DNA from: Spirochaetaceae bacterium
Lineage (GTDB): Bacteria > Spirochaetota > Spirochaetia > DSM-2461
Direction of reading: 5' to 3'
Length of the DNA stretch: 64,000 nucleotides
Assembly: GCA_965224705.1 (NCBI GenBank)
Contig: OZ245056.1
Coordinates: forward strand, 2,656,001 to 2,720,000
In this document: positions 4,981 to 29,375 of the stretch, piece after piece
How the letters are laid out: each line of letters starts with the position of its first letter
Numbering within the stretch: the first letter of the stretch is position 1
Program-made: the position numbers and the translations under genes
The notes under the pieces: model-generated
The model's input: only the letters and a program-made list of their open reading frames with translations
What the model was told of the DNA's origin: nothing
Databases searched by the model: none

Positions 4981-5033
4981 GGTCCCCATGCCTCTGTGAG
5001 AAACTCTCCGATAAGCCCCCCAAAAACCTCCCC

Positions 5034-5062
5034 TTGCATAAACACCAGAACTTCCGTAATGT
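5034..5062 (+). promoter_or_regulatory. putative sigma70 promoter for rpn copy 1 (leaderless)
   Basis: TTGCAT-17nt-TAATGT ending 6 nt before ATG 5069; no SD. Confidence 0.55.
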
Positions 5063-5068
5063 AAAGTC

Positions 5069-5935
5069 ATGGAAACAACCAGACCATTCGATCCGCTGTC
5101 TGACTTGTTTGCCCGTGCCCTTCTGGGCGATGAGAAAAACACCAGCCTGCTGACGAATTTCATCAATGCATTTCTAACCCCAAAGAAATTAGGCCCGGTC
5201 ACCAGCGTCGATATACTCAACCCCTACAACCTGAAAGAATACTTCAGCGACAGGGAAACCATCCTGGATGTCAAGGCAAGAGACAGCCGCAATCGCATCA
5301 TTAACGTCGAGATACAGATCTCCACCGGCAAGTATTTTGCCAATCGAAGTCTGTTATACTGGGCAAAAAACTACCAGAGCCAGCTGCGTGAATCAGAGGC
5401 CTACTCCAGACTCAATCCGGTTATTTGCATCAATCTGGTTGGCGAGCCCCTTTTTCCACAACTGGAGGAGTACCACACCTGCTTTCAACTTACCGAAATG
5501 GATCATCCCGAACAGATCTTGACCGACCATCTGTACATCATGTTCATGGAACTCTCGAAAATGACATTTCCCGATGAAGCCCACCTGGCTATTGGAAGCG
5601 ACTTTGAACGATGGTGCTATTTTTTTAAGTACGAAGGTTATTTGAAGGAGGACGAGATGCCCGTGCTATTGGGAGACAACCCATATATTCAGGAGGCTCA
5701 TAAACTTTACACAACATTCACCGCCGATCAAGCCATGCTTGACAGGCTGGAAGCCAAAGAGAAATGGAGAAGGGATTATCTAAGCGGTCTGGATGAATCC
5801 TGGAACGATGGCAGGGAAAAAGGCCGAGAAGAAGGCATAGCCCAAACAGTCAAAGACTTCAAGGCTGCCGGAGTTTCCATTGATATCATCATCAAGGCCA
5901 CCGGCCTGAGCGAAGAAGAGATCCAGAAACTCTAA
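5069..5935 (+). CDS. rpn: Rpn-family (PD-(D/E)XK nuclease / putative transposase) protein, copy 1
   Basis: ILDVKARD...INVEIQ PD-(D/E)XK core, RSLLYWAK, C-terminal GREKGREEG repeat and IIKATGLS HTH tail. Confidence 0.9.
   Translation: METTRPFDPLSDLFARALLGDEKNTSLLTNFINAFLTPKKLGPVTSVDILNPYNLKEYFSDRETILDVKARDSRNRIINVEIQISTGKYFANRSLLYWAKNYQSQLRESEAYSRLNPVICINLVGEPLFPQLEEYHTCFQLTEMDHPEQILTDHLYIMFMELSKMTFPDEAHLAIGSDFERWCYFFKYEGYLKEDEMPVLLGDNPYIQEAHKLYTTFTADQAMLDRLEAKEKWRRDYLSGLDESWNDGREKGREEGIAQTVKDFKAAGVSIDIIIKATGLSEEEIQKL
5657..5935 (+). CDS. putative in-frame internally initiated Rpn C-terminal protein (92 aa, candidate antitoxin)
   Basis: AAGGAGG at 5645-5651, 5 nt before in-frame ATG 5657. 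Confidence 0.55.
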   Translation: MPVLLGDNPYIQEAHKLYTTFTADQAMLDRLEAKEKWRRDYLSGLDESWNDGREKGREEGIAQTVKDFKAAGVSIDIIIKATGLSEEEIQKL

Positions 5936-5971
5936 CAGAAACAGATCACTCCCAGACCAAAAACCCCCCCC

Positions 5972-6000
5972 TTGCATAAACACCAGAACTTCCGTAATGT
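5972..6000 (+). promoter_or_regulatory. putative sigma70 promoter for rpn copy 2 (leaderless)
   Basis: Duplicate of 5034-5062 at a 938-bp period. Confidence 0.55.
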
Positions 6001-6006
6001 AAAGTC

Positions 6007-6885
6007 ATGGAAACAACCAGACCATTCGATCCGCTGTCTGACTTGTTTGCCCGTGCCCTTCTGGGCGATGAGAAAAACACCAGCCTGCTGACGAATTTCA
6101 TCAATGCATTTCTAACCCCAAAGAAATTAGGCCCGGTCACCAGCGTCGATATACTCAACCCCTACAACCTGAAAGAATACTTCAGCGACAGGGAAACCAT
6201 CCTGGATGTCAAGGCAAGAGACAGCCGCAATCGCATCATTAACGTCGAGATACAGATCTCCACCGGCAAGTATTTTGCCAATCGAAGTCTGTTATACTGG
6301 GCAAAAAACTACCAGAGCCAGCTGCGTGAATCAGAGGCCTACTCCAGACTCAATCCGGTTATTTGCATCAATCTGGTTGGCGAGCCCCTTTTTCCACAAC
6401 TGGAGGAGTACCACACCTGCTTTCAACTTACCGAAATGGATCATCCCGAACAGGTCTTGACCGACCATCTGTACATCATGTTCATGGAACTCTCGAAAAT
6501 GACATTTCCCGATGAGGCCCACCTGGCTATTGGAAGCGACTTTGAACGATGGTGCTATTTTTTTAAGTACGAAGGTTATTTGAAGGAGGACGAGATGCCC
6601 GTGCTATTGGGAGACAACCCATATATTCAGGAGGCCCATAAACTCTACACAACATTCACTGCCGATCAAGCCATGCTTGACAGGCTGGAAGCCAAAGAGA
6701 AATGGAGAAGAGATTATCTAAGCGGCCTGGATGAATCCTGGAACGATGGCAGGGAAGAAGGTGAAAAAGAAGGTGAAAAAAAAGCCATAGCCCAAACAGC
6801 CAGGCGCTTAAAAGCCGCCGGAGTTTCCATTGATATCATCATCAAGGCCACCGGCCTGAGCAAAGAAGAGATCCAGAAACTTTAA
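6007..6885 (+). CDS. rpn: Rpn-family protein, copy 2 (tandem duplicate with variant C-terminus)
   Basis: Protein identical to copy 1 up to about residue 250 except one I/V change; the tail differs. Confidence 0.9.
   Translation: METTRPFDPLSDLFARALLGDEKNTSLLTNFINAFLTPKKLGPVTSVDILNPYNLKEYFSDRETILDVKARDSRNRIINVEIQISTGKYFANRSLLYWAKNYQSQLRESEAYSRLNPVICINLVGEPLFPQLEEYHTCFQLTEMDHPEQVLTDHLYIMFMELSKMTFPDEAHLAIGSDFERWCYFFKYEGYLKEDEMPVLLGDNPYIQEAHKLYTTFTADQAMLDRLEAKEKWRRDYLSGLDESWNDGREEGEKEGEKKAIAQTARRLKAAGVSIDIIIKATGLSKEEIQKL
6595..6885 (+). CDS. putative internally initiated Rpn C-terminal protein (96 aa)
   Basis: Same AAGGAGG-acgag-ATG signal, in frame. Confidence 0.55.
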   Translation: MPVLLGDNPYIQEAHKLYTTFTADQAMLDRLEAKEKWRRDYLSGLDESWNDGREEGEKEGEKKAIAQTARRLKAAGVSIDIIIKATGLSKEEIQKL

Positions 6886-6940
6886 CAGAATCAAATTTTT
6901 CCCACTCCGTATCCTCCATACCTCCGTGAGAAACTCCCCA

Positions 6941-6990: not shown

Positions 6991-7000
6991 GTTCCTGACC

Positions 7001-7398
7001 CAGGGCAATCGCATCTAAAATCCACTAGCCAGAGTGTTCTTCAAAGCCTTATTCATGGGTTTTTAACCGCAGAGGACGCAGAGAGCGCAGAGTGTTCAAG
7101 ATAAATGTTGACCAATCTGTTTATGCTATAGAGACGAAAAAACCCGGACTAAAGTAAGACTTTTTCTCCATTTTTGGGCGTTTTGCCCAAAATGTGGGTG
7201 CGTCCATGCGCCCACGGGCAGCTCTAAGCGGTTTTAAGAGCTGCCCTATATCTCTCTGCGTACCTCTGCGTTCTCTGCGGTTTAATGCCGCTTTGAGGAG
7301 ATTCCACATTCTTTGAGACACTGGATAAAAATTTCCATTGACCTCGAAAATCAGTGTTTTTCATTCTATTTGGGACAGAATTAGATGCAATTACCCTG
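7001..7398. mobile_element. 398-bp ISAs1-derived MITE, copy 1
   Basis: Imperfect TIRs cagggcaatcgcatctaa / ttagatgcaattaccctg; flanks gttcctgacc / gttcctgaac (10 bp, 1 mismatch); near-identical copy at 28813. Confidence 0.9.
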
Positions 7399-7473
7399 GT
7401 TCCTGAACCATATAACCTTGACTGCATCCGGTTTTGCAGGATAGATTTTATTCTTCCTGGGTTCTCTTGAAGC

Positions 7474-28840: not shown

Positions 28841-29375
28841 CCAGAGTGTTCTTCAAAGCCTTATTCATGGGTTTTTAACCGCAGAGGACGCAGAGAGCGC
28901 AGAGTGTTCAAGATAAATGTTGACCAATCTGTTTATGCTATAGAGACGAAAAAACCCGGACTAAAGTAAGACTTTTTCTCCATTTTTGGGCGTTTTGCCC
29001 AAAATGTGGGTGCGTCCATGCGCCCACGGGCAGCTCTAAGCGGTTTTAAGAGCTGCCCTATATCTCTCTGCGTACCTCTGCGTTCTCTGCGGTTTAATGC
29101 CGCTTTGAGGAGATTCCACATTCTTTGAGACACTAGGAGTCTGTCGGATTTACGTCTCACGGCTCGATTTTTGCCCTTTTTCCCTGCTGCTGCGTTGCTA
29201 AAACACTCACGTAGCCCAGCTACGCTCCGTTTTTGTCGCCTTGCATCAGGAAAAAATCATCAAAAATCGCCTCAAAGCCTTAAAATCCGACAGACTCCTA
29301 GATAAAAATTTCCATTGACCTCGAAAATCAGTGTTTTTCATTCTTTTTGGGACAGAATTAGATGCAATTACCCTG
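28813..29375. mobile_element. ISAs1-derived MITE, copy 2, with nested family-B element
   Basis: Perfect 10-bp TSD ggtattctct (28803-28812, 29376-29385); 398 bp + 165-bp insert. Confidence 0.93.
29137..29297. mobile_element. 161-bp palindromic MITE family B (full form)
   Basis: TIR gagtctgtcggattt / aaatccgacagactc, CTAG on both sides; absent from MITE copy 1. Confidence 0.93.

Follow-up and report, generated by a model that had tools for sequence, protein, structure and literature searches.

Can a single bacterial gene encode both a nuclease and a small protein that inhibits it, and which translation starts would yield the two products? This question is raised by two open reading frames (ORFs) in a 64,000-nt stretch of a Spirochaetaceae bacterium genome (GenBank assembly GCA_965224705.1, contig OZ245056.1, positions 2,656,001 to 2,720,000 of the forward strand), hereafter called the window. 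The two ORFs lie in tandem at 5069-5935 (288 aa) and 6007-6885 (292 aa), offset by 938 nt. We consider it probable that they are Rpn genes, each encoding a likely toxic nuclease and, from an internal ribosome binding site, a C-terminal inhibitor of 92 or 96 residues, with a probable anti-phage function. A gene-within-gene toxin-antitoxin design has already been published for RpnA-E and RpnP2 of Escherichia coli (Zhong et al. 2023, PMC10400941).

Gene layout, family membership and fold

Both copies contain the same elements in the same order (Table 1). In copy 1, 17 nt separate TTGCAT from TAATGT, which ends 6 nt ahead of the ATG at 5069; AAGGAGG stands 5 nt ahead of the ATG at 5657 (Met197), and the stop codon is at 5933-5935. 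Copy 2 runs from its promoter hexamers through ATG 6007, AAGGAGG 6583-6589 and ATG 6595 to the stop codon at 6883-6885. The initial annotation had proposed these promoter boxes, starts, Shine-Dalgarno (SD) sequences and products of 92 and 96 aa, and every element was found where it had been placed. The copies differ at 2 positions in the 588 nt upstream of Met197 and diverge mainly in a repeat tract and the tail. They are one recent duplication, and were therefore counted as a single observation. The 71-nt spacer between them (5936-6006) has little structure, and no terminator-like site was found on its + strand. The weak hairpins predicted for the mRNA, with z -1.7 at its leaderless 5' end and z -1.5 near the internal SD, were not significant.

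Table 1. Features of the two gene copies, in window coordinates
Feature	Position	Strand	Remarks
Predicted -35 box TTGCAT, copy 1	5034..5039	+	TTGCA(T/C) in 10/10 class-A paralogues; 3/6 to consensus
Predicted -10 box TAATGT, copy 1, ends 6 nt before ATG	5057..5062	+	Predicted leaderless mRNA, transcription start site (TSS) ~5069
rpnL copy 1, 288 aa, predicted PD-(D/E)XK-type nuclease; D12, D67, E81, Q83, R93	5069..5935	+	PF12784, TIGR01784
Internal SD AAGGAGG, copy 1, codons K193-E194-D195	5645..5651	+	Pairs with the 16S tail of the genome
Predicted rpnS copy 1, 92-aa in-frame C-terminal product	5657..5935	+	Two short helices, long helix with 4-aa repeats, helix-turn-helix (HTH); residues 242-287 overlay RpnA-S
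4-aa (12-nt) repeat tract, differs between copies (copy 2: one unit more)	5813..5845	+	
HTH tail, last 96 nt, 81-84% identity across three nuclease classes	5840..5935	+	
Predicted promoter, copy 2, TTGCAT-17-TAATGT (TTGCAT 5972-5977, TAATGT 5995-6000)	5972..6000	+	
rpnL copy 2, 292 aa	6007..6885	+	PF12784, TIGR01784
Internal SD AAGGAGG, copy 2	6583..6589	+	
Predicted rpnS copy 2, 96 aa	6595..6885	+	

The Rpn assignment made in the initial annotation is borne out by the family models. Both proteins score above the curated cut-offs of PF12784 (PDDEXK_2; E 1e-47, 163 bits against a cut-off of 27.4) and TIGR01784 (Rpn family, T_den_put_tspse; E 6e-42, 144 bits against 52.1). The nearest named homologues are spirochaetal, and many homologues carry PF27070 (HTH_Rpn_C). 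PF04754 (Transposase_31), the type to which E. coli Rpn belongs, matched neither protein nor anything else in the genome, and is present in 4/5 genomes of the same genus. The PF04754-type Rpn genes of the genus mostly have leaderless-type 5' ends, and among the ORFs listed an internal SD-start was flagged in 4/8. In a further Rpn-like type (L231, G002:C36), the 5' end is of the leaderless type and an internal GGAGGT-ATG would yield 91 aa.

In an alignment of 81 sequences (the query and 80 picked from 120 listed homologue matches), D12, D67, E81 and Q83 are invariant and R93 is conserved in at least 90%. The residues tested in E. coli RpnA (D11, D63, E82, Q84 and R94; PMC5350276) occur in the same order at similar spacing, and it is by order and spacing that we equate them. 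The AlphaFold model (predicted local distance difference test, pLDDT, 89.9) has an alpha/beta core followed by helices 194-201, 205-219, 221-266, 271-278 and 282-287. Its top structural match among 48,161 chains was the E. coli inhibitor RpnA-S (7TH0), which overlays residues 242-287 with Z 7.0 and a root-mean-square deviation (rmsd) of 1.7 over 46/46 residues. A sequence search of the PDB returned no match, nor did Foldseek at E<=0.001 with the model of this protein (class A below) or that of class C. By analogy with E. coli, both genes encode a likely toxic DNA endonuclease.

The internal start is conserved as nucleotide sequence

An in-frame internal AAGGAGG-N5-ATG occurs in 1/1866 genes of the genome outside the family, or 6/1866 when spacers of 4-9 are allowed, and a perfect AAGGAGG precedes just 32/1708 first ATGs. 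We examined the internal start in a pool of 184 homologous loci, made up of 24 from relatives, 80 from genomes and 80 from metagenomes; loci of the same genome were excluded. These held 194 matching ORFs, 164 of them covering the domain, which together with the query gave 98 representatives at <70% identity. At the column of Met197, 64 representatives have a start codon (56 ATG, 6 TTG, 2 GTG). The predicted duplex of these 64 with the anti-SD averages -9.5 kcal/mol, compared with -5.3 for synonymously shuffled sequences; 59/64 pair more strongly than their shuffle mean, and 18 reach an individual p<=0.05. Codon choice follows the same pattern: GAG makes up 67/98 of the glutamate codons inside the SD window versus 414/1267 elsewhere, and AAG 20/33 of the lysine codons versus 397/1254. 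As a control, 477 other ATGs showed no excess of SD pairing.

The SD is encoded by varied peptides (KED, EEE, QED, MED, WEE) ahead of ATG or GTG, and the effect holds at 30-47% identity. SD-start matches fall within query positions 190-209 in 66/83 cases, and the predicted small products of the homologues span 84-135 aa (median 107; 59 closed ORFs). The initial annotation had allowed that the SD might not be conserved at synonymous positions; across the homologues it is. We conclude that the predicted internal start of these Rpn genes is under nucleotide-level selection and not incidental, and that it is almost certainly used. A small protein of the size known from E. coli, starting at Met224, was also considered and rejected: that codon lacks an SD in the window and its column lacks a conserved SD-start. 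No later conserved SD-start was found downstream of the Met197 column among the 98 representatives.

The predicted leaderless start and the source of the small product

The ATG of the full-length gene has no SD (duplex energy 0 for copy 1, the sequence upstream of copy 2 being identical). Both promoter hexamers agree with the sigma-70 consensus at 3/6 positions each and a consensus scan did not list the promoter, so that its support lies in conservation of position. TAATGT or TAGTAT ends 6 nt ahead of the ATG in 10/10 class-A paralogues, the type found in the window. In the two other classes of the genome, both likewise SD-less, a -10-like box lies 9-10 nt from the start behind TTGACA-17 (class B, 6/6) or 5-7 nt from it (class C, 9/9 with a 5' end). 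Among 90 homologues, TANNNT ends 6 nt upstream of the start in 24 and 7 nt upstream in 11, with ~4 at other offsets, and a peak 6 nt ahead of first ATGs is also seen genome-wide (73/1708 versus ~28). The full-length genes thus resemble the TA-led leaderless class of Zheng et al. (2011, PMC3160421), whose SD-less members have TANNNT ~12 nt upstream of the start; the TSS of the genes described here is predicted. Such genes were reported at 3.9% for spirochaetes where detected (PMC3160421). The full-length mRNA is probably leaderless.

Leaderless-type starts are found in 31/58 spirochaetal homologues (not dereplicated) versus 34/169 first-in-operon neighbours. This trait clusters in one clade, however, with 35/64 inside and 2/26 outside it, and the raw co-occurrence of leaderless start and internal SD (31/50 versus 6/40) reduces mostly to that clade. 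Within the clade they still co-occur in 31/50 versus 4/14 (p 0.035, uncorrected for phylogeny). Independent pairs gave no support for co-evolution of the two starts (median p 1, from too few pairs on a FastTree tree).

The genome also encodes 44 full-length copies of a second nuclease family, DUF1703 (PF09820 and PF08011, ATPase-nuclease), which, like the Rpn genes, is expanded, arrayed and SD-less with a near -10-like box (for example C1:1716799-1723379). An SD is present in 0/44 of these genes, and 42/44 have TANNNT, extended -10-like, 5-10 nt upstream of the start; the genome background is 346/1253, and 266 in the control window. Unlike the Rpn genes, they have a different architecture and 0/44 have an internal AAGGAG start. 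The 5' design therefore looks common to the expanded nuclease cassettes of this genome, and the internal start specific to the Rpn type. The predicted leaderless start is thus conserved in homologues and yet not Rpn-specific. The initial annotation had proposed that weak leaderless translation of the nuclease and strong SD-led translation of the inhibitor, from one mRNA, set their ratio. The SD half of this proposal agrees with the selection on the internal start; the leaderless start as a ratio-setting device of Rpn genes is not supported, since DUF1703 genes are SD-less too and independent pairs give no coupling.

These observations bear on a possible, though not probable, alternative, namely that the same toxin-antitoxin pair has its ratio set mainly by a separate internal transcript, the leaderless start only reflecting how single-gene, defence-type cassettes of this lineage are generally built. 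It would fit the DUF1703 counts, the confinement to one clade and the uncoupled independent pairs, as well as the internal TSS of all E. coli rpn genes (PMC10400941). The window has TG-n-TATTTT, resembling an extended -10, 33 nt upstream of the internal ATG. Among 53 homologues, however, TANNNT occurs 30-39 nt ahead of the internal start 29 times versus 27.7 expected from synonymous shuffles (10 versus 7.5 with -35 or TG support), and the sequence is explained by W-x-Y-F codons; in contrast to E. coli rpn, there is no sequence sign of an internal promoter here, although one may exist. The within-clade co-occurrence given above also argues against this alternative. Metatranscriptome contigs (three runs of one study, 85-99% alike, covering small shares of the region) had a higher summed depth over the 3' part, which we did not use because contigs cannot rank gene parts and because a like pattern would arise from the tails held in common and from the deletion derivatives. 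In one contig from these RNA runs, 5943 is followed directly by 6913, so that 969 nt are missing; its shorter flank is 28 letters long, and it is possibly a one-copy allele or another paralogue.

Three nuclease classes share a near-identical tail

The query protein had 41 matches within its own genome, which form classes A, B and C and amount to ~30 copies. The spirochaete Rpn pair described in the initial annotation is real, but the system was understated, the pair being 2 of ~30 copies in three nuclease classes. Class B matches PF12784 and has 36-41% identity; class C has no Pfam match in its N-terminal part, and TIGR01784 matches only its residues 221-277, below cut-off. The internal start reads K-E-D-E-M in class A, K-E-D-P-V (GTG) ~nine codons further on in class B, and K-E-D/N-N-M in class C, where the predicted small product has 58-78 aa.

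After removal of duplicates from 51 rows, our census comprised 28 distinct intact SD-led small ORFs versus 18 intact full-length genes (seven of class A, two of B and nine of C). In ten copies the nuclease part is broken and the small ORF intact, and in three fragments (near C1:1039504, 1268610 and 1658924) the small ORF is broken. Two class-A copies have kept the promoter and lost ~440 and ~380 nt (C1:1274614-1275082 and 1402115-1402656), the sequence resuming 23-35 and 30-31 nt ahead of the internal ATG. In a class B copy (C1:537661-537960), an in-frame deletion has fused ~10 initial codons to the sequence for ~70 C-terminal aa; this copy would use the upstream promoter, not the internal SD.

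Small ORFs of class A encode 88, 92, 96 or 100 aa, in steps of 4 aa. The last 96 nt of the genes are 81-84% identical between classes versus 82-86% within them, and in a tree of 29 tails classes A and C each fall on both sides of the main split (support 92/99; 14/24 inner branches open). The HTH tails of the three classes therefore appear to have been exchanged by recombination. Presence in relatives is patchy (13/41 genomes).

A profile of five class C N-terminal domains retrieved 655 cluster representatives (50% identity) at E<=0.001, 85 of them at 1e-10. Any one Pfam family matches at most 5 of 83 aligned members, and TIGR01784 matches 41/83 weakly (best E 7e-12). The Atlas clusters are unnamed, one of them having PF27070 in 13% of its members. 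The class C model (pLDDT 93.5) matches the PD-(D/E)XK proteins AF1548 (Z 8.5), NucS (Z 8.2) and McrC (Z 7.4). Residues 231-276 of the model superpose on RpnA-S 7TH0 (Z 6.6, rmsd 1.6, 46 residues). Because profile comparison links class C to class A from ~residue 94 onward (probability 98.4%), class C may be a remote relative of class A and not unrelated. In 76/83 members a methionine is no more than six columns away from the internal start (background mean 10, maximum 20). Each of the 19 representatives for which DNA was available has, 63-125 codons from the end, an SD-ATG that pairs more strongly than its own shuffle mean, a figure inflated by choosing the best start per gene; in one of them (L266) the SD-ATG is at another position. 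In this genus, S replaces the family's E in ExK, so that nuclease activity is not assured. Judged by these models, class C is a PD-(D/E)XK-like fold joined to an RpnS module with an internal SD-ATG, its nuclease activity being only predicted. It was found in 11/401 genomes of a phylum sample in which six candidates were scored per genome.

Tandem class C arrays lie at C1:222869-233335, 998714-1004894 and 1947704-1950880 (L001-L003), two of which contain a class A gene, and genome G012 has a longer array in which the 4-aa repeat tracts are very long. Next to the class A/C array, at C1:221.5-222.6 kb, are a small HRDC-domain protein (L001:758-1126) and a putative formylglycine-generating-enzyme-like C-terminus (L001:49-363); neighbours of this kind are reminiscent of diversity-generating retroelements. 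Downstream of the Rpn pair, at 7000-7400 (C1:2663040-2663300), is a non-coding inverted-repeat element with CGCAGAG arms. It has 15 near-full copies at 96-100% identity and 75 genome matches, with a second window copy at ~28852-29112; a plasmid match was looked for and none was found. Three class C genes have a related element, identically placed, where their promoter and initial ~22 codons would be.

Comparison with known Rpn systems

The genes resemble E. coli Rpn (PMC10400941) in the PD-(D/E)XK-type N-terminal domain with D..D..ExQ..R residues, the in-frame internal SD-start, and, in the predicted model, the C-terminal long helix and HTH that overlay RpnA-S 7TH0. They share with it variable 4-aa repeats, tandem direct duplications and stand-alone small genes, which here have the nuclease deleted and the upstream promoter kept, and resemble the E. 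coli RpnSs. The full-length gene lacks an SD here, whereas that of RpnA-L is marked in the Fig. S1A legend of PMC10400941. PF12784 and TIGR01784 with PF27070 match the full length, but this family is annotated as putative transposase, and the family names and descriptions returned mention neither an internal nor a leaderless start.

The design was already known beyond enterobacteria. RpnS of Clostridioides difficile (WP_009902002.1) was shown on expression in E. coli, and RpnS alignments cover B. cereus, B. fragilis and L. interrogans, the last being named for repeat variation (PMC10400941 Figs 4B, S2 and S6). A leaderless long form, a ~100-aa small form and tail exchange between nuclease families were found neither in the available text of PMC10400941 nor in other literature outside subscription journals. 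The same searches returned no paper linking leaderless mRNA, toxin-antitoxin systems and internal translation initiation, and none (under one spelling) on Rpn in spirochaetes. What appears new is the small protein of about twice the known size, the antidote-only derivatives, and an apparently swapped tail common to three classes, each with an internal start; the extension to class C is set apart from published Rpns by the text of PMC10400941 only, as far as available.

Evidence against and alternative explanations

Several observations weigh against an inhibited, anti-phage nuclease. The predicted small proteins of 92/96 aa are ~2x the size of the ~50-aa, ~5.4-kDa E. coli RpnS, and their repeats begin ~50 residues past Met197 instead of 8-20 (PMC10400941). 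The Z score of 7.0 is modest by itself, since the tail is a helical bundle. At column 197, 33/98 homologues have a non-start codon and one a gap, some of them with a shifted start; more distant lineages start at positions 192-207, and a deep group has no internal start. Kinship among homologues makes Fisher p-values overstate the effects, and one deletion derivative (C1:1274614-1275082) has its SD altered to AAGGAAG. The window neighbours (a major facilitator superfamily transporter, an S41 peptidase and a peptidyl-prolyl isomerase) do not form a defence island, the protein is not represented among the PADLOC models, and a specific defence-type neighbour lies within 3 kb in 5/39 homologous loci (no control set). 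In the flanking set (140/151 proteins, 39/42 loci), 13 proteins in 8 loci match PADLOC at 1e-30. A phage collection was uninformative, with distant homologues in 8/50,697 records; full-length distant homologues at 29-30% identity occur in Wolbachia phage WO records (H1-H4).

The context and repertoire leave some room for a mainly selfish addiction or recombination-promoting module, spread by tandem duplication and gene conversion, for which phage defence would be incidental. We regard this as rather doubtful. The ~30 copies and fragments in arrays (41 matches), tails homogenised across classes, patchy presence in relatives and non-defence neighbours all agree with it, as does the promotion of RecA-independent recombination by Rpn proteins in E. 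coli (PMC5350276). Diversification is, however, centred on the repeat tract and tail, as in those E. coli genes that are active in defence; RpnP2 confers protection from T-even phages (PMC10400941); and a second nuclease family, with 44 copies, is expanded in the same genome. On balance we lean slightly towards phage defence as the main role.

It is highly unlikely that the small product, though real, serves the nuclease as a structural or activating partner (compare Cas11 in Cascade) instead of inhibiting it. Its ~45 extra residues (helices 194-201 and 205-219 and half of the long helix) are absent from RpnA-S, and complementary internal-start products such as Cas10d/Cas11d are known (cited in PMC10400941); yet the tail overlays a crystallised inhibitor, and small ORFs outlast nuclease loss in 10 loci, like E. 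coli RpnSs. We propose with good confidence that the small product inhibits the nuclease. Scarcely credible is an accidental SD-ATG in the K-E-D-x-M codons of ordinary putative transposases, even though the family is so annotated and K-E-[DEGAV] is spelt AAGGAGG in 123/822 cases genome-wide, given the synonymous test and its controls, the varied peptides spelling the same SD, the start kept as GTG, the deletion end points and the case made against transposition by Zhong et al. (PMC10400941).

Proposed mechanism and significance

In the mechanism that we propose, the full-length protein would be translated from a leaderless, SD-less mRNA and the small protein from an SD that is among the strongest of the genome, as read from the sequence alone. 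With a leaderless long form and a strongly SD-led small form, the inhibitor would likely be in excess; since no terminator-like site lies between the copies, read-through would add inhibitor and little nuclease. The small C-terminal protein would bind and block the full-length nuclease. By analogy with E. coli Rpn (PMC10400941), it would dimerise via its long helix and form an inactive complex with the full-length protein, repeat number would set cognate specificity, and freed nuclease would restrict phage. Two more nuclease classes of the genome would use the same cassette logic. The recurrence of a near-identical tail on a differently built nuclease-fold family suggests a portable safety switch.

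A bolder proposal, which we put forward as speculative and unlikely in full, is that the RpnS tail acts as a transferable cassette for self-inhibition, which was fitted to, and is still swapped among, distinct PD-(D/E)XK families, including an unannotated one of 655 clusters, and that stress or infection that lowers SD-led initiation and spares leaderless initiation would free the nuclease. Leaderless translation is inefficient in E. coli; in mycobacteria it is about equal to SD-led translation and better kept up under stress (PMC8485053). If the proposal is true, the asymmetry between SD-led and leaderless starts would provide the trigger for toxin release, which both Zhong et al. and Koonin name as an open question.

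The antitoxin was shown experimentally by Zhong et al. in E. coli, and by expression only for one C. difficile gene (PMC10400941), and the commentary of Koonin (PMC10400984) raises the questions of how widely the principle applies and of what sets the toxin free. The locus described here offers a controlled comparative test, which shows selection on the predicted internal start throughout a broad PF12784 clade. Class C carries the design over to a nuclease-fold family whose catalytic part has no Pfam model, and natural putative antidote genes from which the nuclease has been deleted are also present. The ~18 intact putative toxin genes and 28 predicted antidote ORFs belong to three classes and combine different tails and repeat numbers, which would make this one genome a matrix for the study of cognate specificity, and the leaderless/SD asymmetry makes one hypothesis on the trigger directly testable.

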